A DNA stretch of 64,000 nucleotides. Source: an uncultured Pseudomonadales bacterium (GTDB lineage Bacteria > Pseudomonadota > Gammaproteobacteria > Pseudomonadales > Porticoccaceae). Numbering within the stretch: position 1 is the stretch's first letter; each line of letters begins with the position of its first letter. The stretch spans positions 108,747 through 172,746 of the forward strand of contig CASIAU010000001.1 in the NCBI GenBank assembly GCA_949372765.1. Reading direction: 5' to 3'. Positions 4,414 through 48,882 of the stretch are shown here, in pieces. The position numbers and the translations under genes are program-made. The notes under the pieces were generated by a model. The model was not told where the DNA came from and searched no databases. It worked only from the letters and a program-made list of their open reading frames with translations.

Positions 4414-6318
4414 CTACAGGCTGTAGCGCACTCCTAAACTAGCACCAAAACCTAGTGTCTGATAACCGAATACCTCCTCGTAATCATCATCTAGGGCGTT
4501 TTCTAACTTTAGGTAAATATCAAGTTTCTCGCTCGGCGCATAGTTAAGGTTAATATTGAGCAAAGTATGGCTACCTAAATCAACAACTTGCGATGGCTCA
4601 GGGAAAGGTGGAAAGTACACGTCTGTTTGCTCTCCCGTAAATTGAATATTAGTATTTAAATACAGATTATCGGATGCCTGCCATCCTAGGTTTAAACTCG
4701 CGGTATGTTGCGGTCTTCTCACTTCTCTAACCGAATCATCTCCCGTTGAATCAGTGTATGTATAGGCGCCGGAAAGTGACAAAGATTCAGAAAGATTACC
4801 AGCGGCACTTATTTCTCCGCCTCTACGTTCGCTTGCGCCGTCTATATTACTGGACGTATAAGCAAAGGTCGTTGGGTCTAACACAAATCCATTTATTTCA
4901 TTCTCTAAGTCTGCATCAAAAAGAGTCAGCGATAACGTAGCATCACCGCCCATGAGTTGCTGATCAACTCCCAACTCCCAACTTGTAGACTCTTCAGGAA
5001 TTAGATTTGGGTTGCCAATAAAGTTTGTGTAAAAACCAAAACGCTCTGTAAATGTTGGGTTTTTTACCGCCGTACCAACTGCGCTTCGAAGACGTGTATT
5101 CTCTGATAATCGATAAATGGCTTCTGCTCTAAATGTATTTGCACCGTCGAACTCAGAATTATCATCATGTCGACCACTGGCGGCCAGTGTTAATTGGTTA
5201 CTGATATCCGTTCGATACTCAATGGCCAAACTATTAGTATCACGTTCACGATCTTGATTTGGGTCATAAACACCCCAAGAAATTTCGCCTCGCTGCATCC
5301 ACTCTTCTTCCTCCCGCTCAACTAAAACCGAGAGAGTCTGTGCACCCTGAGCCCAAGATAGCGACCCCGTATATTGATATTGGTCTTTGGTCGAAGCGGT
5401 TACATTACCCTGCACACCATCAGCGAAAGCGGTATTATCACTTTTCGCTCTGCTAATCAGAATTTTATGCTGCCAAGCCCCATCTCGAGAGGAATAGTCA
5501 CCTTGCAGGCGCATAGTGCTATTTTCAAATTCCGACATTCTGTCTTGATCTTCAATAATGCCGTCAAAATCATTATCGGCATCAAATTGATTCATACCAT
5601 CAGACTCCCGAGCAGCAAATGAAAGAGTCATTTGATCATTCATCTTCAAGCCTGATTTAAGATTAACAGTAGTATTGCGGTAACCATCATTTTCGGCCCC
5701 TGAGCGGGCGATATTATCTCCCTCTGACTCGACATGACTCAGACCAAAGCGAATATCGAAATCATCTTGTTTGTGACCAAGGCTAAATCCACTGTGATGG
5801 GTAGACCAGCTACCACTTTCGACAAAAAGACCGATACCCGAAGTGTCTGCACTGCGGGTAATAATATTCACAACACCTGCAACCGCATCGCTGCCTCGCA
5901 GCGAGCTCTGTGGACCGCGTACAATTTCAATACGCTCAATGTCAGACGCGGTTAGGGTTCCCCAGCTAAACTCATCACCCTGAGATGGGTCATTAGCCTC
6001 AACACCATCCACCGTGACTAGCAAATGGTTGGCCTCAGCGCCGCGCACACGAATCTGAGTTTGCGACCCTAAGACTCCAACTTGACTCACAGAGAAACCA
6101 GGAACGTCGCGAAGGATGTTACTGAGACTTACCGTGGCACGGTTTTTTAGCTGCTCTCTATCAATAATGGTCACAGCATTACCTGATCGGCTGGCTGCAA
6201 TAGGGACTAAGGAGGCGCTGACCAACACTTCCTGAATTTCTGTATCAATGACAGTCTGTGCCTGTAATGATGTAGCCGACACTAATACTGCTAACGATAA
6301 AAGGAGTATTTTTCTCAT
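4414..6318 (-). CDS. btuB: TonB-dependent outer-membrane cobalamin receptor
   Basis: Signal peptide MRKILLLSLAVLVSATSLQAQ and a TonB-box-like region (EVLVSAS). The plug domain carries IEIVRGPQSSLRGSDAVAGVVNIITR, and the C-terminus ends GASLGVRYSL. Sits directly downstream of a cobalamin riboswitch. Start set at M29 of the track ORF (ATG 6318, preceded by GAGGAAATT). Confidence 0.9.
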   Translation of the reverse strand: MRKILLLSLAVLVSATSLQAQTVIDTEIQEVLVSASLVPIAASRSGNAVTIIDREQLKNRATVSLSNILRDVPGFSVSQVGVLGSQTQIRVRGAEANHLLVTVDGVEANDPSQGDEFSWGTLTASDIERIEIVRGPQSSLRGSDAVAGVVNIITRSADTSGIGLFVESGSWSTHHSGFSLGHKQDDFDIRFGLSHVESEGDNIARSGAENDGYRNTTVNLKSGLKMNDQMTLSFAARESDGMNQFDADNDFDGIIEDQDRMSEFENSTMRLQGDYSSRDGAWQHKILISRAKSDNTAFADGVQGNVTASTKDQYQYTGSLSWAQGAQTLSVLVEREEEEWMQRGEISWGVYDPNQDRERDTNSLAIEYRTDISNQLTLAASGRHDDNSEFDGANTFRAEAIYRLSENTRLRSAVGTAVKNPTFTERFGFYTNFIGNPNLIPEESTSWELGVDQQLMGGDATLSLTLFDADLENEINGFVLDPTTFAYTSSNIDGASERRGGEISAAGNLSESLSLSGAYTYTDSTGDDSVREVRRPQHTASLNLGWQASDNLYLNTNIQFTGEQTDVYFPPFPEPSQVVDLGSHTLLNINLNYAPSEKLDIYLKLENALDDDYEEVFGYQTLGFGASLGVRYSL

Positions 6319-6399
6319 AATTTCCTCTAACACTCTCACCCGAGTGAATGGATTTAAAGTATGCGAGGAACATAGAAAAGGCAGAGGGACAAAGACTGT

Positions 6400-6605
6400 C
6401 AATCAGCACAATACCGCACCCCGCGGTTTGTCTGCGTAGCAAAAGGCAGGTCTCCGGACTCATAAGTGAGCAAACGCTCTATTTGGTAACCTTCCCATGC
6501 CGAAGCACAGTGGTATCCAACCAAATACTCTTATTTACCGTTGCGGGGGCAGTGTCGGGATGACTTTCTGTTTCGTTGCAAAGTGCACCGACTTCCCTTT
6601 TCATT
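6400..6605 (-). promoter_or_regulatory. Cobalamin (B12) riboswitch in the btuB leader
   Basis: The minus strand reads AAAAGGGAAGTCGGTGCA...CTGCCCCCGCAACGGTAA...CCACTGTGCTTCGGCATGGGAAGG...AGTCCGGAGACCTGCC. The last block is the B12 box (plus-strand GGCAGGTCTCCGGACT at 6446-6461). Downstream, TTCCTC could pair with the btuB Shine-Dalgarno GAGGAA, giving a possible RBS sequestrator. Boundaries are approximate. Confidence 0.9.
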
Positions 6606-6664
6606 TCTTTACGCCAAATACTGATATGACGAAAAGAAAACCTTTTGCAGAAGCAAGAGAGGGC

Positions 6665-6772: not shown

Positions 6773-7057
6773 ATGCTCGCAGTGTTGATAAAAAGAACGT
6801 TGGCGTCAGAAATGGAATCGACCTATGAAGCGTTCTCTCGGAAAATGATTCAAGCGGCTGTGCCTGCCAAAGGGTTCATTTCTAGTAAGGCGTTTAAAGA
6901 TTTAAAAGATAGCAAAATCCGCTACACGCTAATCCAAATGGAGTGCTTAGCCGATTGGAAAGCGTGGTATGAGTCTGAGGAGCGCCGTGCTGCTTTGATG
7001 CACATACAGCCTCTGCTAAAAGAAGATGAATACATTTCGATCTTGACGACGGCTTAA
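6773..7057 (+). CDS. Small ABM-fold (antibiotic biosynthesis monooxygenase-like) protein
   Basis: 94 aa with the pattern GFISSKAF..L.D...RYTLIQMECLADWKAWYESEERRAAL, typical of single-domain ABM/ferredoxin-like proteins. Family call is from pattern recognition only. Confidence 0.55.
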   Translation: MLAVLIKRTLASEMESTYEAFSRKMIQAAVPAKGFISSKAFKDLKDSKIRYTLIQMECLADWKAWYESEERRAALMHIQPLLKEDEYISILTTA

Positions 7058-8424
7058 GTTAGCGCCTCTAGGGCATCGGTCACCTTGCGTACAGGCACTA
7101 TCGTCATACCTTTAATAGGTTGTTTAGGCATATTACCTGCTGGGACAATAGCATGGCTAAAGCCATGCTTAGCTGCCTCACGCAAACGCTCTTGACCATT
7201 GGCAACCGGTCGAATTTCACCTGCCAATCCGACCTCACCGAAGACCACTAAATCTTTCGGGAGAGAGGTGTCTCTAAAACTGGATATCACTGACAGTATC
7301 AATGCTAAATCTGCGCTGGTCTCCAAGACTTTGACACCCCCAACAACATTGACAAAAACGTCCTGATCACCGACAGATATACCCCCATGCCGATGCAGTA
7401 CCGCCAGTAGCATTGACAGACGATTATGATCTAGACCCACCGTGACTCGTCGGGGATTACCCAAATGACTATCATCAACTAATGCCTGCAATTCCACTAA
7501 AAGAGGCCGCGTGCCCTCCCAGACCACCATTACCACACTACCTGATGACACCTCTTCTCCACGCTGCAGGAAAATAGCTGAAGGGTTGGGTACTTCGCGC
7601 AGACCCTTATCAGTCATGGCAAAAACGCCAAGTTCATTAACTGCACCAAAGCGGTTCTTATTGCTGCGCAGGGTTCTGAATTGACTGTCGCTAGACCCCT
7701 CTAACATCAGAGAACAATCAATCATATGTTCCAATACTTTGGGTCCCGCCAATGACCCATCTTTTGTAACATGGCCAACCATGATCAGCACAGTTCCAGT
7801 CTGTTTGGCAAACCTTACGAGCATGGCAGCACTCTCTCTCACCTGAGAAATACTGCCAGGCGCAGAGGCAACCTCTGCGATATGCATCACCTGAATTGAG
7901 TCAATGACTACAATTTTTGGGCGCTTTTGCTCGGCGATTGCGCAAACGGTTTCCACTGAAGTCTCGGCCATAATCTCAAGCTTTTTAGTCGGCAAGCCCA
8001 GTCGATTAGCTCGCATGGCCACCTGTTGTGGTGATTCTTCACCGGTAACATACAAAGCACTATTACTTTCTGCCATGGCGCAGAGTGTTTGCAGTAATAC
8101 CGTGCTCTTGCCTGCACCAGGTTCACCACCGAGTAACACACAGGATCCTGGGACAAATCCACCTCCCAGAACTAAATCTAATTCACCGGTACCAGAACTA
8201 ATTCTTGGAATTTCATCAAGAGCAATATCAGCAAGGGTTTTGACCACACTGTCCACATTACCAGTAAAGCCCGAGCGCAATACCGCACCTCCCCTAGAGG
8301 GGCTGCCAAGGCGCACCTCAGAAAGCGTATTCCATGCATTGCATTCACTGCACTGACCCTGCCACTTGCCATAATCTGCGCCGCAATCATTGCAAACATA
8401 GGCTGATTTAGTTTTGATCACCAT
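7054..8424 (-). CDS. radA: DNA repair protein RadA/Sms
   Basis: N-terminal zinc finger CNDCGADYGKWQGQCSECNAWNT, Walker A GGEPGAGKST, KNRFG motif, and a Lon-protease-like C-terminal domain. Confidence 0.97.
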   Translation of the reverse strand: MVIKTKSAYVCNDCGADYGKWQGQCSECNAWNTLSEVRLGSPSRGGAVLRSGFTGNVDSVVKTLADIALDEIPRISSGTGELDLVLGGGFVPGSCVLLGGEPGAGKSTVLLQTLCAMAESNSALYVTGEESPQQVAMRANRLGLPTKKLEIMAETSVETVCAIAEQKRPKIVVIDSIQVMHIAEVASAPGSISQVRESAAMLVRFAKQTGTVLIMVGHVTKDGSLAGPKVLEHMIDCSLMLEGSSDSQFRTLRSNKNRFGAVNELGVFAMTDKGLREVPNPSAIFLQRGEEVSSGSVVMVVWEGTRPLLVELQALVDDSHLGNPRRVTVGLDHNRLSMLLAVLHRHGGISVGDQDVFVNVVGGVKVLETSADLALILSVISSFRDTSLPKDLVVFGEVGLAGEIRPVANGQERLREAAKHGFSHAIVPAGNMPKQPIKGMTIVPVRKVTDALEALT

Positions 8425-8462: not shown

Positions 8463-8482
8463 TACTGTAGTTATGTACAGTA
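8463..8482. promoter_or_regulatory. LexA (SOS) box
   Basis: TACTGTAGTTATGTACAGTA fits CTGT-N8-ACAG and closely matches the gammaproteobacterial consensus TACTG(TA)5CAGTA. Located in the 140-bp divergent region between radA (ATG 8424) and the ORF starting at 8565. Confidence 0.75.
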
Positions 8483-8564: not shown

Positions 8565-9686
8565 ATGTCGTTAATTCCTGAAAAACCTATTGTTATTTCT
8601 CCCACCCTAGCCGCAACGATCGGCTTGGAAGAGACCGTTTTCCTGCAGCTTCTGCAAGAGTGTCTGAGTCATGGCAATCCTGTGACTAGTAGCGGTTTTG
8701 ACTGGATTACAGTGCCTGCCGATAAAATTCTCCACCTAGCCCCCTTTTGGAGCCAGACCGATGTGCGGCGTTTGTCATCAAGCCTGCACGAAAAGGGCCT
8801 GTTGTTGATCGGCGGTGGCCCGTTTACCGCGCAACATGATTTTCGCTTTGCCTTTAATGAGCGCTCACCTTCTCAACAAGCACCTGTAATGTCCGGCTCT
8901 ACTGGAACCAGACCTGCAGTGCCAACCAGTAAGCCTCATTCAGCAAAAACTATCGGTGGCAGTTGGCAACCGAGCGAAGATGCTCTTCGTCAGTTGAGTC
9001 AGCTCGGTGTGACACGAGAATTCGCCCAGCAACAAATTCCTCAGTTTGTTAGCTATTGGCGTGAGCGTAATGTGCCGCGCCACAGCTGGGAGTCCAAATA
9101 TATTAAGGAGGTCTGGCGACAGTGGCAGCAGACCGAAACAACCAACAACAGAAGGCGTAAAGAAGTATCCGTCACTGGAGATTGGCGACCCTCAGTTGAT
9201 GCTCTTGATATCTTAGTCAGTAAGGGTGGTATTAATACTAACTTTGTCGAAGACGCTATTCCCGAGTTTATTTTGTACTGGCGAGATCGAGGCGAACTAT
9301 CGAGTACCTGGGACTCAAAATTTATCCAGCATGTTAGGCGTCAGTGGCAGTTCTTTACCGGAATGATGGAACAGGATTCTATGCCTCGGGTTATACCTGC
9401 AAATTGGAAACCCAAAGAGACAGTCTATGATGTCTTGCAAATGGCCAACATAGACCGTCCATTTGCTGAAAAAACTATTCCAGAATTTGTTTTATACTGG
9501 CAGGAGAATGGAACGCCTCAATCTTCCTGGAGTACAAAATTTTTACAATATGTTAAGCGTCAGTGGGCGTATCAAAGTAAATTATTAACGGAACCTTCCA
9601 ATGGCAAACAGCAAGGACATTCAAAAGGTCGCATCCGGGATCGGAGCATCATCGAAAAGCTCACCGACCGCAGCTGGGCATCCTAA
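8565..9686 (+). CDS. Protein with three tandem DnaT-like ssDNA-binding domains
   Basis: 373 aa: an N-terminal region of about 95 aa, a P/S/T/Q-rich linker, then three repeats (aa 134-187, 207-262, 281-334). The repeats share W.P....L.....F....IP(E/Q)F..YW....W..K(F/Y)...V.RQW. This is the same skeleton as the C-terminal domain of E. coli DnaT as I remember it. Confidence 0.7.
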   Translation: MSLIPEKPIVISPTLAATIGLEETVFLQLLQECLSHGNPVTSSGFDWITVPADKILHLAPFWSQTDVRRLSSSLHEKGLLLIGGGPFTAQHDFRFAFNERSPSQQAPVMSGSTGTRPAVPTSKPHSAKTIGGSWQPSEDALRQLSQLGVTREFAQQQIPQFVSYWRERNVPRHSWESKYIKEVWRQWQQTETTNNRRRKEVSVTGDWRPSVDALDILVSKGGINTNFVEDAIPEFILYWRDRGELSSTWDSKFIQHVRRQWQFFTGMMEQDSMPRVIPANWKPKETVYDVLQMANIDRPFAEKTIPEFVLYWQENGTPQSSWSTKFLQYVKRQWAYQSKLLTEPSNGKQQGHSKGRIRDRSIIEKLTDRSWAS

Positions 9687-10263
9687 GGAAGCCAAAGCTT
9701 CTCCTCAGCTGATCGATGCCATCAATCAGGTTTTTGCGCTGTTTCAAGTCAATTATCACAATCAGTATTACAGTGCATTCGGTGACACCACAAAGTCTGA
9801 GAATCTAGCCAAAAATCTTTGGTGTAAGAAGCTAAATAATTTCTCACCAGAAACCATCTGTGGTGCAGCAGAGAAAGTTATTGCCGAAAGTGATTACCTA
9901 CCCACTCTCCATAAAATGCTTAATGCCTGCCGCCATGTGGGTATGCCCGCCGGGCTGCCAAACTCAAGAAAAGCCTATCAGGAGGCCTGCAATAAAATTA
10001 GCCCCAAGGCTGATCAAAAATGGTCTCATCCAGCCGTTTATTTTGCTGGGCGCGATGCTGGTTGGCACATGCTGTCTAACGGAATTGAATCCAAAGTGAT
10101 GCCGGTCTTTAGCGAGATCTATCAACAATACTGCGACCGTGTTTTAGCCGGTGAGAAGTTTATTATCGAAAAATCGAGCACTATCCCTGAACTACCAGAA
10201 TTACCGGCTACCAAAAAGCATAATCAGCAGCAACTTGATAACCTCAAAAAACTGTTAGATTAA
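9601..10263 (+). CDS. Phage lambda P-like (replication protein P family) protein
   Basis: 220 aa. Blocks INQVFALF, YLPTLHKMLNACR, PAGLPNSRKAYQEAC and WSHPAVYF line up with the lambda P segments INGVFSQL, FLPSPGQFVAWCR, TAGLPNVSELVDMVYEYC and WKSNAHYW (lambda sequence from memory). The only ATG/GTG/TTG start in the 5' part of this frame is at 9601, which overlaps the upstream ORF by 86 nt. Confidence 0.6.
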   Translation: MANSKDIQKVASGIGASSKSSPTAAGHPKEAKASPQLIDAINQVFALFQVNYHNQYYSAFGDTTKSENLAKNLWCKKLNNFSPETICGAAEKVIAESDYLPTLHKMLNACRHVGMPAGLPNSRKAYQEACNKISPKADQKWSHPAVYFAGRDAGWHMLSNGIESKVMPVFSEIYQQYCDRVLAGEKFIIEKSSTIPELPELPATKKHNQQQLDNLKKLLD

Positions 10264-10283: not shown

Positions 10284-12053
10284 ATGGCATTGCAACTACT
10301 GATACACAACTCAACCGCACGGCGTATGGCGAAAACCATACTCAATGGGTTTCGCAGCTATTTTGCTGATTACCTCAACTCAACGCTAACCGCAAAAGCA
10401 CGGTTTGAGAAAGCCGACTGGCATGGCGTGAGTCAAGCCAATGTTGAACGTTTAGAACTCTACAAGGACAAGGTTGCTCAGACTGTTCAATATCTTGAGG
10501 TGGTGACCAATAAAGATATCGCTAACCTACCACTTTGGAGTGAGGCTAAAAAGGCTTACACCCAATTGGTATTTAATTTCCCTAATTTTGAGATTGCCGA
10601 GACTTTCTTTAATTCAGTGTTCAGTGATATTCATGATCATGACAAAATTAGCGATGATATTATTTATGTACTGTCATCCCAGTTAATAGAAGCGCCCGAA
10701 GCGGAATACAGCATTTTTGTGCGCTACGAAGGTGAGAATTTTCGGGACACCTTTCAGCGAATTCTCGAGGAGGCGGAGTTCTCCCTGCCGATGGAAGATC
10801 TCTCTCTAGATCTCGATTGTATAATGGCTGTGTTTAATCAAGAAATTGTCCCTCATTTAAAGGGGGCTCCGGAGACCATTAAATTCGATTTGCTGGAGTC
10901 AACTTTTTACCGCAGTAAAGCTGCCTATATGGTGGGACGGATAGTGAATGGTGATCAGACCTTCCCCATGGCGCTGGTTGTGCTCAACAATGAACAGGGT
11001 GCGCTCTACGTAGATACTGCGTTATTTAATGCCGATGAGTTGAGTGTTATATTTAGCTTTACCCAAAATCATTTTATGGTCGACGCTCCTCTACCTTATC
11101 AATACGCTCTTTTTCTGAAGAATTTGGTACCCAATAAACTCGATTATGAAATTTATAATTCTTTAGGGTTTCCAAAGCATGCAAAAACTGAGTTTTATCG
11201 ACAATTGGTGGGCCATTTGGAAAACTCCAGTGATGAATTTGTTATCGCCCCAGGCATCAAAGGTATGGTGATGACCGTATTTACGCTACCCTCTTACAAC
11301 ATTGTTTTTAAAATAATTAAGGATAAGTTTGCGCCGCCAAAAGAGGTAACTCACCAAATTGTGCGAGAGAAATATCGTCTGGTTTCGCGCCATGACCGTA
11401 TCGGGCGCATGGCTGATACACAAGAATTTGATAATCTGGTTTTCCCACTTAATCGTTTTTCTAAAGAATTGGTCTCCGAATTACAAAAACTTGCGCCATC
11501 CCAAATAGAGATTAGAGACGACACACTTCTGATAAAGCACCTGTATACCGAGCGCTACATGACACCCCTAAATATCTTCCTTGAAAGTGCCGATGACGCG
11601 GAGATAAGAAGCGCTATGGAAGAATACGGAAACTGTATCAAACAATTGGCGGCGGCGAATATATTCCCGGGCGACATGCCGTTAAAGAACTTCGGCGTTA
11701 CCCGACATGGTCGTGTGGTGTTCTATGACTATGATGAGATCGCCACTCTCACTGATTGTAATTTCCGCAAAATCCCTCAAGCGAGAACAGAACAAGAAGA
11801 GATGCAGTCTGGCACTTGGTATACGGTGGGCCCTGACGATATTTTCCCTGAAGAATTCAGGTTATTTTTCTCAGGAAATATTAAAGCACGTAAAATGTTT
11901 GAAGAGATTCACAGTGAACTCTATGAGGTTACCTTCTGGACTGACCTGCAAGAAAAAATTCGTAACGGCTATGTGGTTGATATCTTCCCTTACCGACGAG
12001 TAAAGAGGTTCGATCGTGGTAAAAGCTCTCAACTAGAGGTTTTTGCTGACTAA
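10284..12053 (+). CDS. aceK: Isocitrate dehydrogenase kinase/phosphatase
   Basis: 589 aa. N-terminus AKTILNGFRSYFADYL...ARFEKADWHGV and FEIAETFFNSVF parallel E. coli AceK (ILQGFDAQYGRFL...QRFEQADWHAV, FEIAESFFNSVY). Length also fits. Confidence 0.92.
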   Translation: MALQLLIHNSTARRMAKTILNGFRSYFADYLNSTLTAKARFEKADWHGVSQANVERLELYKDKVAQTVQYLEVVTNKDIANLPLWSEAKKAYTQLVFNFPNFEIAETFFNSVFSDIHDHDKISDDIIYVLSSQLIEAPEAEYSIFVRYEGENFRDTFQRILEEAEFSLPMEDLSLDLDCIMAVFNQEIVPHLKGAPETIKFDLLESTFYRSKAAYMVGRIVNGDQTFPMALVVLNNEQGALYVDTALFNADELSVIFSFTQNHFMVDAPLPYQYALFLKNLVPNKLDYEIYNSLGFPKHAKTEFYRQLVGHLENSSDEFVIAPGIKGMVMTVFTLPSYNIVFKIIKDKFAPPKEVTHQIVREKYRLVSRHDRIGRMADTQEFDNLVFPLNRFSKELVSELQKLAPSQIEIRDDTLLIKHLYTERYMTPLNIFLESADDAEIRSAMEEYGNCIKQLAAANIFPGDMPLKNFGVTRHGRVVFYDYDEIATLTDCNFRKIPQARTEQEEMQSGTWYTVGPDDIFPEEFRLFFSGNIKARKMFEEIHSELYEVTFWTDLQEKIRNGYVVDIFPYRRVKRFDRGKSSQLEVFAD

Positions 12054-12598
12054 CGATAGGACAGTATTTCGGTTCGGTTCCCAGCCTTAATAACAAAGTT
12101 ATCCGGTTTGATAGACACCAGGGTCCACGTCTTATTTAAAGCGTCACCTTCACGAAAACTTCGATCGTCAATAAAGAGTCGATTGGAGGAAGAGCCCTCA
12201 GTGATAAACATGTGGCCAGCCACTCTAAAATCGGGAATTGTCTCAGCAACAGGTGCCGATGTTTGTGACTCGCTAATATCAGCAGTGCTCTCCGCTTGGA
12301 TCTCATTCTGCATCGCTGGTGTTTCAATCACCTCTAGTGCAACTTCTGAGATAAGCGGTGTGGCAATGGTAGTTTGATTTGCAGGGAGATACTGCATCCA
12401 CTGCCCGCTAAAAAAACCACCGAGTACCAGCCCCAGTAGCAACAGAACAACTGCCAACAGCCAACGTCCAGACCCTGTGGCCTGTGGTGGCGGTTGATAT
12501 GGGTCCCAATGAGCGCTGGCAAAATCATTCAAGTCTTGGGGATCTTCCCTGCGGCGATCTCGCTCAGCTTTTTTTAATGCATTAAGAATGTAGGACAT
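12050..12598 (-). CDS. gspB: Type II secretion accessory protein GspB/ExeB
   Basis: Typical N-terminus MSYILNALKKAERDR, a single transmembrane segment (WLLAVVLLLLGLVLGGFF), and a conserved C-terminal domain. Its start overlaps the gspA stop by 1 nt. Confidence 0.8.
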   Translation of the reverse strand: MSYILNALKKAERDRRREDPQDLNDFASAHWDPYQPPPQATGSGRWLLAVVLLLLGLVLGGFFSGQWMQYLPANQTTIATPLISEVALEVIETPAMQNEIQAESTADISESQTSAPVAETIPDFRVAGHMFITEGSSSNRLFIDDRSFREGDALNKTWTLVSIKPDNFVIKAGNRTEILSYR

Positions 12599-14364
12599 TA
12601 ACCACCGCTCCGAGTTAATCTTGGCACCAGCGGATCAGTCAGTTGATTCAAGCGCATAAGCGTTTGTCGACCAACAATACCATCTGCAGTAATATTTTGT
12701 TGGCTCTGAAAATCAGTAACCTGCGCCTGTATAGCAGCAGTGTAATTACCCCCTGTAATCAGTTGTTCTAGGTCATCATTAACCAAGTCAAGCTTCCCTT
12801 GCAACCAGGCTAACGCTGGTTTATTGAAATCATCCGGTTTAAGTATTTCGAAAGAGTCCGGTGATCGCCATAAATATAGATAGCTACCTGTCCACTGGTC
12901 CAAGAAAGCTGCTCGATCCATCGCTATGCGGTCTCCACTGGACATTAGGCTGACAGTAAACTCATTAATGTCCACAATAAGATGACTTTTCTCCAGCCCT
13001 GACGGCTGCCGCATAAACACAACGCCTGGACGATCAATCAAAGATAGCGCAAACAGCGTCGTGTCATCTAATTGAGCTGAGCGCAGCCCCGATCTTCCCG
13101 CAAGCGCATCAAACTCTGCCAGTGTATAGATTTCTGAAGCAGACACGCCCCAGAGTTTAAGAAGATTGATAAGAGGATTTTTTGAGCGCTTGTTTGCACT
13201 TTCTTCCTGATTTTCGCCATTTTCATCCGTCTGGGCCAAAGTCTCTAAGGATTCTGGCACCCCAGATTCGATGATTTGATCATCTGGCGGTAGTTGTTCT
13301 ATGTCAACCAATCGCGTAATCACTGGTTCTAGACTAACGGTAGGAGCAACAACTGGCTCCTTAGCAGCTGCAGCGGTAGTATCTAGCGATACAGAGCTCG
13401 GGCCATCTGAATTACTATTAAATCTAGTTAAGTAGTCATTCCAGTCACTATTTTTTAATGGCGTAAGCGTTGCCGCTATGGCGATAAAAACCACTGAGAC
13501 CAAAACAAGTAGAGCTGAGCGAGAGTGGCTATTAGAGTGTTTTAAATCAACTAAAATCTCTTTGGATGAGAGCCTAACTAACTTAGCTGAGACGGTTTTA
13601 GTACCGATAGAATAAGCTGCCAGTAGCGCTTGATGGCAAATCAAGTTGATCAACCGAGGAACACCTTTGGTCAGCTTAAATAGGGTATGAACGCAATTAG
13701 TATCAAAAATTGCACCACCAGCGCCTGCATGATGCAGTCGATGATTAATATAATTGGCAATTTCAGTTTTATCCAAAGGCAGTAAATGAAAGCGTGATAC
13801 TACTCGCTGATTTAACTGCCGAAGCTGATTCTGTCCCAGCATCTCCAACAGTTCAGGCTGACCCACCAATAGAATATGTAGCAGCTTATGAGTATTTGTC
13901 TCTAAATTACTAAGCAGTCTTAGCGTTTCTAGGACGTCATGACTCAGATTTTGCGCCTCTTCAAGGACAATCAGCGTTTTTTTACCTGCCGCATGGGCAT
14001 CCAGTAAGTCTTGATTAAGCGCATCAATACACGTTTTAGAAAACGAAATATGTTTTCTGGTAGGAATTTTAATCGATAATTCACTGCAAATACTGGCGAG
14101 CAGGTCTGATTCATTAAGCTTACTATTTAGCACATAGGCAACACGCACATGGGCGGGTATACGCTGCAGCATTGTTCGAGTGAGCGTCGTTTTACCCGTC
14201 CCGACCTCGCCGGTGAGAAGTATGAAACCACCCTCTCGATCAAGGCCATATTTTAGGTGGGCAACCGCTTGACGATGCTGATGACTGGGGTATAAAAACC
14301 CGGGATCAGGAACAATCGAGAATGGCTCTCGCTTGAGCGCAAAATGCTGTAAATAAATACTCAT
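12598..14364 (-). CDS. gspA: Type II secretion accessory ATPase GspA/ExeA with C-terminal peptidoglycan-binding domain
   Basis: N-terminal AAA domain (Walker A GEVGTGKTT; Walker B LIVLEEAQ), a transmembrane segment (ALLVLVSVVFIAIAATL), and a C-terminal PG_binding-like ITADGIVGRQTLMRLNQL. Confidence 0.85.
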   Translation of the reverse strand: MSIYLQHFALKREPFSIVPDPGFLYPSHQHRQAVAHLKYGLDREGGFILLTGEVGTGKTTLTRTMLQRIPAHVRVAYVLNSKLNESDLLASICSELSIKIPTRKHISFSKTCIDALNQDLLDAHAAGKKTLIVLEEAQNLSHDVLETLRLLSNLETNTHKLLHILLVGQPELLEMLGQNQLRQLNQRVVSRFHLLPLDKTEIANYINHRLHHAGAGGAIFDTNCVHTLFKLTKGVPRLINLICHQALLAAYSIGTKTVSAKLVRLSSKEILVDLKHSNSHSRSALLVLVSVVFIAIAATLTPLKNSDWNDYLTRFNSNSDGPSSVSLDTTAAAAKEPVVAPTVSLEPVITRLVDIEQLPPDDQIIESGVPESLETLAQTDENGENQEESANKRSKNPLINLLKLWGVSASEIYTLAEFDALAGRSGLRSAQLDDTTLFALSLIDRPGVVFMRQPSGLEKSHLIVDINEFTVSLMSSGDRIAMDRAAFLDQWTGSYLYLWRSPDSFEILKPDDFNKPALAWLQGKLDLVNDDLEQLITGGNYTAAIQAQVTDFQSQQNITADGIVGRQTLMRLNQLTDPLVPRLTRSGG

Positions 14365-48417: not shown

Positions 48418-48774
48418 TTATCGTTTAATCGGACGCTTGGGACCTTTACGGGTGCGCGCGTTCGTCTTGGTACGCTGTCCGCGTACCGGCAAATTACGTC
48501 GATGACGTAGGCCTCTATAGCAACCTAAATCCATCAACCGCTTAATGTTCATACTTGTCTCGCGACGTAGATCCCCTTCAACTTCGTTCTGCCCAACGGC
48601 AGCACGCAACTGATCAAGTTGACCTTCGTCCAATGCAGAAATTTTAGTGTCTCCTGCAATGCCCACTTCCGCACAGATTTTCTCCGCGGTTGGACGTCCG
48701 ATACCAAACACATAAGTCAGTGAAACCACTGTGTGTTTATTATCTGGAATGTTGACACCGGCAATACGGGCCAT
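48418..48774 (-). CDS. rpsM: 30S ribosomal protein S13
   Basis: [14 protein letters not shown]... Confidence 0.99.
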
Positions 48775-48882
48775 TCACATTACTCCACTTATACTATGGG
48801 TTTAATCGGTACTCCAACACCCCGCAGCAACACTGCGAAAAGGCGCGGTAGAATACCGATAGATCTAACAAAAATCAACCAA

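Follow-up and report, generated by a model that had tools for sequence, protein, structure and literature searches.

Two genes derived from lambda O and P, dopC and dopE, have been domesticated as a pair in the Cellvibrionales and in part of the Oceanospirillales (PMC5509034; Brezellec et al., 2017, Genome Biol Evol). According to the available text of that paper, DopC combines an N-terminal O-like helix-turn-helix (HTH) with a DnaT C-terminal motif, its gene always lies upstream of dopE, and the Cellvibrionales and Oceanospirillales bearing the two genes are said to be without dciA and dnaC/dnaI. DopC/DopE is a proposed third way, after DciA and DnaC/DnaI, to load the bacterial replicative helicase. 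Here we analyzed a stretch of 64,000 nucleotides (nt), referred to as the window, whose positions serve as coordinates throughout. The gene at 8565 to 9686 on its plus strand is almost certainly the dopC ortholog of a SAR92-clade bacterium and the partner of a downstream lambda-P-like dopE.

The other system to which the locus can be compared is DnaT of Escherichia coli. On DNA, C-terminal domains of DnaT assemble into an open helical filament, with five copies in the crystal (PMC4132743), and a 2026 cryo-electron microscopy study of the preprimosome found four such domains along the lagging-strand single-stranded DNA (ssDNA), with 2 nt per domain-domain interface (PMC13377028). In that study, the filament takes the DNA from PriB, and a separate N-terminal domain, which forms dimers and filaments and to which preprimosome oligomerization is ascribed, is proposed to recruit DnaB-DnaC. 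A monomer-trimer equilibrium of DnaT in solution is given in references cited in the same paper.

The window comes from a Porticoccaceae bacterium of the SAR92/HTCC2207 clade, order Cellvibrionales, and hence from a host order in which DopC/DopE has been described. The closest relatives of the window protein are labeled Porticoccaceae, SAR92 or HTCC2207, and the best genome locus, in a SAR92/HTCC2207 metagenome-assembled genome, encodes a 97% identical ortholog. We identify the gene product as DopC because it matches PF17948, the DnaT DNA-binding domain, in three separate stretches (whole-protein E = 7.4e-66, 218.3 bits against a 25-bit cut-off) as well as PHROG 1032, "replication initiation protein" (E = 3.6e-12), because the product of the next gene matches PF06992, Phage_lambda_P (E = 1e-7, 32.3 bits against a 26-bit cut-off), and PHROG 109, "P-like helicase loader" (E = 3.5e-16), and because the published description, the host order, and the conserved loci all agree with this assignment. 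Both Pfam and PHROG thus place a resident lambda-P-like gene in the window with an O-like/DnaT-motif gene directly upstream. A phmmer search of DopE against the PDB returned no lambda P chain, and DopE is accordingly assigned by its Pfam and PHROG matches; neither DopC nor DopE is represented by a model in NCBIfam. The initial annotation of this stretch had overlooked the 220-amino-acid (aa) lambda-P-like open reading frame (ORF) at the 3' end of dopC.

To survey the genomic loci, we compared 80 species (the best locus and 79 more), from SAR92 to Simiduia and other Cellvibrionaceae, at 44 to 97% protein identity. Exactly three repeats were present in dopC at all 80 loci, and an overlapping dopE directly followed dopC at every locus with enough downstream sequence. 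Furthermore, radA lay divergently upstream in nearly all of them and aceK downstream in most, so that the order radA<>dopC-dopE>aceK or a close variant of it extends across Porticoccaceae and Cellvibrionaceae. Synteny and base composition both indicate a non-prophage context, with conservation that appears to follow the host phylogeny. Nothing essential distinguishes the window from the DopC/DopE of Cellvibrionales as given in the available text of PMC5509034: gene pair, order, domain types, and chromosomal non-prophage context are the same, and DopC orthologs of Simiduia, a genus of the IN-group in that text, can be aligned with the window protein over the entire length.

The DopC/DopE family is therefore already published, and the finding, real as it is, is explained at the family level. 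The added value lies in the relatives on mobile elements and in details of the anatomy, such as the three tandem copies, the DRSWA tail, and the conserved gene overlap, along with the rigid R2-R3 spacing and the two to four repeats of the wider family. The available text of PMC5509034 speaks of "a domain" of DnaT, and the three tandem copies, the tail, and the overlap are not discussed in it.

Anatomy of DopC and its overlap with dopE

The ORF is real as initially annotated, with an ATG start and 373 aa, and its three repeats (R1 to R3) are all present where they had been placed, except that R1 ends one codon later (aa 188, nt 9128, instead of aa 187, nt 9125). Their DnaT-type assignment also held, with exactly three PF17948 matches, and the E. 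coli DnaT sequence given at the time agrees with the PDB profile alignment. Pairwise local alignment of the repeats gave 22 to 25 identities over 54 to 55 columns (41 to 45%), with BLOSUM62 scores of 135 to 145 against shuffle means of 23 to 26 (z = 22 to 28); at the DNA level, the repeats leave a trace only in the form of a 219- to 222-nt coding period. When the repeats of 11 family members were combined into a profile, it matched only DnaT entries in the PDB (4ou7, 4ou6, 2ru8, 9zbu, 9zbt, and 6aep; best E = 7.2e-5).

Structure prediction points in the same direction. AlphaFold2 (AF2) gave three helices per repeat, with a predicted local distance difference test score (pLDDT) of ~80 to 95, and the sole credible PDB matches of the repeats in Foldseek were DnaT C-terminal domains (top matches 6aeq and 4ou6; prob 0.97 to 0.99, TM ~0.5 on the target). 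The Foldseek E-values were weak (0.13 to 0.27) because the domain is small. The repeats are thus predicted to adopt the three-helix-bundle fold of DnaT residues 84 to 153.

The aromatic residues and the lysine of each repeat align with F124, Y127, and W128 in helix 2 and with K143 in helix 3 of E. coli DnaT, which are base- and backbone-contacting residues in the DnaT-dT10 complex (PMC4132743). All three repeats retain this F-x-x-Y-W triad and the lysine with no or almost no variation in the family alignment. K133, F135, and R146 of E. coli DnaT are not conserved in the DopC repeats, the first two having no counterpart because loop L3 is two residues shorter in DopC.

The three repeats differ in their conservation. 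Mean identity across species is 47% each for R2 and R3 and 30% for R1, and it is 37% between R2 and R3. Since R2 and R3 are more alike across species than to each other, the triplication is probably old. Among 61 family representatives, the start of R3 follows that of R2 at 73 ± 1.4 aa; between R1 and R2, the spacing varies more widely, from 70 to 150 aa.

The initial annotation had left the N-terminal 95 aa and the linker unassigned. The linker is a disordered, P/S/T/Q-rich stretch, and the N terminus is a winged helix. AF2 predicted the topology H-H-E-E-H-H-E-E (pLDDT 83 to 89), and Foldseek matched it to the RepA_N-DNA complex 5kbj (prob 0.96) and to the DnaD N-terminal domain 2v79 (prob 0.66). 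In addition, residues 2 to 82 matched PHROG 6493, "DnaD-like helicase loader" (E = 1.7e-4), and residues 2 to 209 aligned in tblastn with phage genes annotated as "DNA replication protein O," "replication initiation protein," and "DnaD-like primosome initiator" (E = 4e-9 to 1e-5).

DopC ends in a conserved tail. In an alignment of 43 sequences with 26 to 76% identity, D368 and W371 are invariant and S370 nearly so, and DRSWA is invariant in the 67 unique sequences from the genome loci. Among family representatives, the D.SW motif was found in 61 of the 81 proteins with three repeats and in 6 of the 7 with four, and it recurs in Mu-like phage and Rep3-fusion relatives. The tail is encoded within the overlap with dopE. 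In all 23 sequences inspected, from Porticoccaceae to Simiduia, dopE has an in-frame ATG at -86/-89 from the dopC stop (-74 at one locus). Nucleotide entropy in the overlap, counted in the dopC frame, is highest at codon position 3 (0.86), followed by positions 1 (0.63) and 2 (0.38), and amino acid entropy is lower in the dopC frame (0.81) than in the dopE frame (1.21). The overlap thus varies as expected for the dopC frame, so that the DopC tail is the product under selection there, with the initial ~28 residues of DopE serving as a tolerant leader. A downstream start for dopE, which would do away with the overlap, was rejected, as the window has no in-frame ATG past the dopC stop and the ATG at -86/-89 is kept across families.

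Compared with DnaT of E. coli and Salmonella (4OU6/4OU7, 2RU8, 6AEP, and 9ZBU), the DopC repeats share the PF17948 three-helix bundle, the F-x-x-Y-W triad, and the K143 equivalent, at ~20 to 25% sequence identity. The gene order is also alike, since dnaT and dopC both lie directly upstream of a phage-derived helicase-loader gene (dnaC and dopE, respectively). However, DnaT has one C-terminal domain per chain and multimerizes by its N-terminal domain, whereas DopC has three in one chain together with a winged helix. PDB DnaT chains matched the repeat region of DopC only, and DopC lacks the N-terminal oligomerization domain, and probably the PriB-docking linker, of DnaT. The tails differ as well: DopC ends in DRSWA and lacks the ...EPDxxIPPGFRG ending, while Salmonella DnaT and an Escherichia phage O-like protein end in IPPGFRG. 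The latter is "Primosomal protein I" of Escherichia phage mEp460_ev081 (L082, 2492-3457), a lambdoid O-like protein that shares the N-terminal winged helix of DopC and has no PF17948 match. It ends in ...SEPDTEIPPGFRG, matching the extreme C terminus of Salmonella and E. coli DnaT (6aep and 2ru8; E ~0.03, 21 residues). Host DnaT and this phage initiator thus appear to share a terminal, putatively docking-type peptide, which parallels the DRSWA tail of DopC.

Phage O and O-like proteins, such as the "DnaD-like primosome initiator" of Stenotrophomonas phage QH16, have an N-terminal winged helix related to that of DopC, and those of Stenotrophomonas and Xanthomonas phages carry one DnaT domain, compared to three in DopC. 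In lambda, O immediately precedes P, the loader gene, according to the available text of PMC5509034, much as dopC precedes dopE. DopC nevertheless differs from a lambda O-type initiator, in that its gene has no iterons and its product gave no Pfam match to the lambda O C-terminal domain. DopC is resident in the chromosome yet of phage descent.

A similar logic is found in Bacillus subtilis. Its DnaD and DnaB consist of a DDBH1 winged helix and one or two DDBH2 ssDNA-binding domains and act with the loader DnaI, both at oriC and in PriA-dependent restart. DopC shares with them the combination of a winged helix and small helical domains, and its N terminus matches DnaD-like models. Its C-terminal domains, however, belong to PF17948 and not to DDBH2, so that the likeness of the repeats is architectural only.

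Table 1. Features of the dopC-dopE locus in window coordinates and, in the last row, related proteins in coordinates of their own contigs
Feature	Position	Strand	Description
dopC	8565-9686	+	ATG start, 373 aa; winged helix, linker, three DnaT domains, C-terminal tail
Winged-helix domain, lambda-O/DnaD-like	8601-8855 (~aa 13-97)	+	AF2, Foldseek, PHROG, tblastn
P/S/T/Q-rich disordered linker	8856-8951 (~aa 98-129)	+	pLDDT 30-37; length and sequence vary in the family alignment
DnaT repeat R1	8964-9128 (aa 134-188)	+	Pfam stretch, AF2 three-helix bundle; F161-x-x-Y164-W165, K178
DnaT repeat R2	9183-9350 (aa 207-262)	+	Best Pfam stretch (aa 203-262); F235-x-x-Y238-W239, K252
DnaT repeat R3	9405-9569 (aa 281-335)	+	Third Pfam stretch; F308-x-x-Y311-W312, K325
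Conserved C-terminal tail	9627-9683	+	GRIRDRSIIEKLTDRSWAS; DRSWA two residues from end, DopC terminus ...LTDRSWAS
dopC/dopE overlap	9601-9686	+	86 nt, out of frame; dopC 3' end with dopE 5' end
dopE	9601-10263	+	220 aa, lambda-P-like helicase loader
radA	7054-8424	-	Divergent upstream neighbor of dopC
aceK	10284-12053	+	Downstream neighbor of dopE
Two-DnaT proteins on Mu-like contigs	L084 3938-4525; L086 3941-4585; L087 3989-4525; L089 3998-4498		Also on L085 and L088

Family members and relatives on mobile elements

A winged helix followed by three DnaT domains is the dominant architecture among the family representatives, taken from 50%-identity clusters. Four-repeat forms occur in Microbulbifer/Biformimicrobium and in Sessilibacter, and there are also two-repeat forms. 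Relatives in cultured phages have the winged helix alone or with one DnaT domain, and none of them spans at least 80% of DopC.

A different type of relative was found in uncultured viral contigs from IMG/VR, which encode proteins of 166 to 214 aa consisting of two DnaT domains and an LTDRSWA tail, without a winged helix. Their genes lie immediately upstream of gemA-mor in Mu-like transposable phages with a MuB-like ATPase (AAA_22) and DUF3164, and the product looks like a phage-borne DnaT-like factor. Mu replication uses the PriA restart primosome of the host. Furthermore, a metagenomic protein of 638 aa (P0209), annotated as "plasmid replication initiation protein," combines Rep3 WH1 and WH2 with two DnaT domains and the same LTDRSWA tail. 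Because it occurs in Mu-like phages and in this Rep3 fusion as well as in DopC, the tandem-DnaT-plus-tail unit is a portable module, used on varied DNA-targeting domains or alone in elements that replicate from a fork-like intermediate.

Mode of action and rival explanations

We propose that DopC is a single-chain adaptor that would mark exposed ssDNA for helicase loading. Its three linked DnaT-type bundles would form a pre-assembled short filament on ssDNA, with ~2 nt per domain-domain interface, and the covalent linkage would replace the N-terminal oligomerization domain of E. coli DnaT, making concentration-dependent oligomerization unnecessary. R2 and R3 would have a fixed geometry, which fits the constant spacing between them, and R1 would be held more loosely. 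The winged helix may serve to target either duplex DNA or a partner, the DRSWA tail may dock DopE-DnaB, or DnaB or PriA directly, and the gene overlap would couple the synthesis of adaptor and loader. Domain identities, conservation, synteny, and membership in the DopC family are established by the present analysis; we infer the ssDNA binding, the filament geometry, the partner of the tail, and the site of action, and we regard the mechanism as plausible rather than probable. Identity as a DopC ortholog and mechanism, taken together, make a reading that we consider reasonably probable.

Several observations support this proposal. An ssDNA filament is suggested by the fold matches to DnaT only, the conserved contact residues, the multi-copy filament of E. 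coli, the fixed R2-R3 spacing, and the predicted template modeling score (pTM) of 0.55 for the repeat region. A function as adaptor is suggested by the invariant DRSWA tail in its constrained frame, the fusion to Rep3, and the stand-alone module in Mu-like phages. As to the site of action, the Rep3 and O-like fusions and the coupling to DopE point to initiation at oriC, while the Mu-like context and the precedent of DnaT point to restart; DnaD/DnaB/DnaI of Bacillus offers a precedent for both.

Other observations weigh against the proposed mechanism. According to our reading of the alignments, the helix 2 residues A122, A126, and A130, which form the interface in E. coli DnaT, are not conserved in DopC, so that a DnaT-like filament geometry is not established. 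The pTM was 0.32 for full-length DopC and 0.55 for the repeat region alone, indicating only moderate confidence between domains, and R1 is far less conserved than R2 and R3, so that the three domains may not be equivalent. Moreover, the tail occurs in the Mu-like relatives although the sequence examined contains no P-like loader, which disfavors DopE as the only partner. Finally, a search of the accessible literature returned no experiments on DopC or DopE, and later papers mention dopE only in passing.

The initial annotation had suggested a possible covalent pseudo-trimer; read as a closed assembly, its three domains would pack as a fixed three-fold unit and mimic the DnaT homotrimer on ssDNA. 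Such a unit would suit the three repeats at all 80 loci and in most family representatives, as well as the monomer-trimer equilibrium of DnaT in solution, but it is hard to reconcile with what is known of DnaT at work: its DNA-bound C-terminal domains form open filaments of four to five copies (PMC4132743, PMC13377028), and oligomerization in the E. coli preprimosome is ascribed to the N-terminal domain (PMC13377028). Within the family, the copy number ranges from two to four, and members with two and four repeats have the same tail. Given also the variable R1-R2 spacing, the greater divergence of R1, and the low to moderate pTM values, we consider a closed trimer quite improbable. The idea survives in modified form, with the covalent linkage standing in for oligomerization.

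Another possibility is that DopC is a replication-restart factor only, which would replace DnaT, and perhaps PriB, at PriA-bound forks and hand lagging-strand ssDNA to DopE-DnaB, with no role at oriC. This option is raised by the authors of the DopC paper in its available text (PMC5509034), and elsewhere the DnaT domain is known as part of the restart primosome (PMC13377028). The stand-alone module in phages resembling the PriA-dependent Mu, the parallel with the dnaT-dnaC operon of E. coli, and the position of dopC next to the repair gene radA would all fit. On the other hand, dopC is always overlap-coupled with dopE, whose product, if it is the substitute for DciA, has to work at oriC. Fusions of the module to initiators that bind origins, namely, the O-like winged helix and Rep3, also occur, and the LexA box between radA and dopC goes with radA and not with dopC. 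A role confined to restart therefore seems unlikely to us, though less so than a closed trimer. Least probable by far, and barely credible, is that the gene pair is an active or cryptic phage or plasmid replicon with its own origin, left over from a prophage. Both proteins are indeed of phage type, and the lambda origin lies inside gene O (available text of PMC5509034). Nevertheless, no iteron array was found in dopC, whose sole DNA repeats are the three coding repeats; the GC content of dopCE is that of its flanks, with no GC island and no skew inversion; no phage genes flank the pair; and its gene neighborhood is kept across families over the whole identity range of the survey. This is in agreement with the available text of PMC5509034, in which dopC is without iterons and GC skew puts the replication origin at gidA-dnaA in 13 genomes. 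A cryptic origin inside dopC was thus rejected. The placement of the gene between radA and aceK and outside a prophage, as initially annotated, is borne out by the synteny over 80 genomes and by the absence of a GC island. In contrast, the alternative drawn at the time between host module and phage remnant falls away, since the gene is a domesticated, lambda-O-like phage gene paired with a lambda-P-like loader.

A broader form of the single-chain adaptor proposal is more speculative and, in our view, rather doubtful. DopC would be a "pre-polymerized" DnaT that replaces the PriB/DnaT hand-off and that, together with DopE, loads DnaB at oriC and at abandoned forks, as a Gram-negative counterpart of DnaD/DnaB/DnaI; Mu-like phages and Rep3 initiators would have reused the module as a general cassette for helicase recruitment. 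Because the 2026 structures show DnaT working by filamenting several C-terminal domains, chains of the DopC type, with two to four linked DnaT domains, a tail, and a coupled loader, would be a handy system for asking what number of DnaT domains the hand-off of ssDNA requires and which element recruits the helicase-loader complex. As SAR92 and other members of the Cellvibrionales are abundant marine heterotrophs, the question concerns the replication machinery of an ecologically important group.

Neighborhood of the locus

A perfect gammaproteobacterial LexA box, TACTGTAGTTATGTACAGTA, lies at 8463 to 8482 between radA and dopC and is the sole full 20-mer of this kind in the window. It lies ~40 nt upstream of radA; in related loci, the box keeps this distance to the radA start, also when a gene of 0.7 to 1.4 kb intervenes between radA and dopC, and it is missing from many loci that retain dopCE. 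SOS control of dopC was therefore rejected. As the box stays with radA, it is the SOS box of that gene, and radA appears to be SOS regulated in the SAR92/Porticoccaceae clade. The spacer being only 140 nt, the box could incidentally affect the divergent dopC promoter.

Farther away, a cobalamin riboswitch (RF00174, 105 bits) at 6428 to 6660 on the minus strand lies directly upstream of a 662-aa ORF (4414 to 6402, minus strand), a putative TonB-dependent btuB-type receptor, judging from its position and the appearance of its sequence. An alpha-operon ribosome-binding-site leader (RF00140, 41.5 bits against a 38-bit gathering score) at 48742 to 48875, also on the minus strand, marks a ribosomal-protein operon, indicating that the window is core chromosome. 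Downstream of aceK, the minus strand at 12050 to 14364 encodes two adjacent ORFs that appear unrelated to dopCE, one of 588 aa, P-loop ATPase-like and with an extended low-complexity region in its middle, and one of 182 aa.

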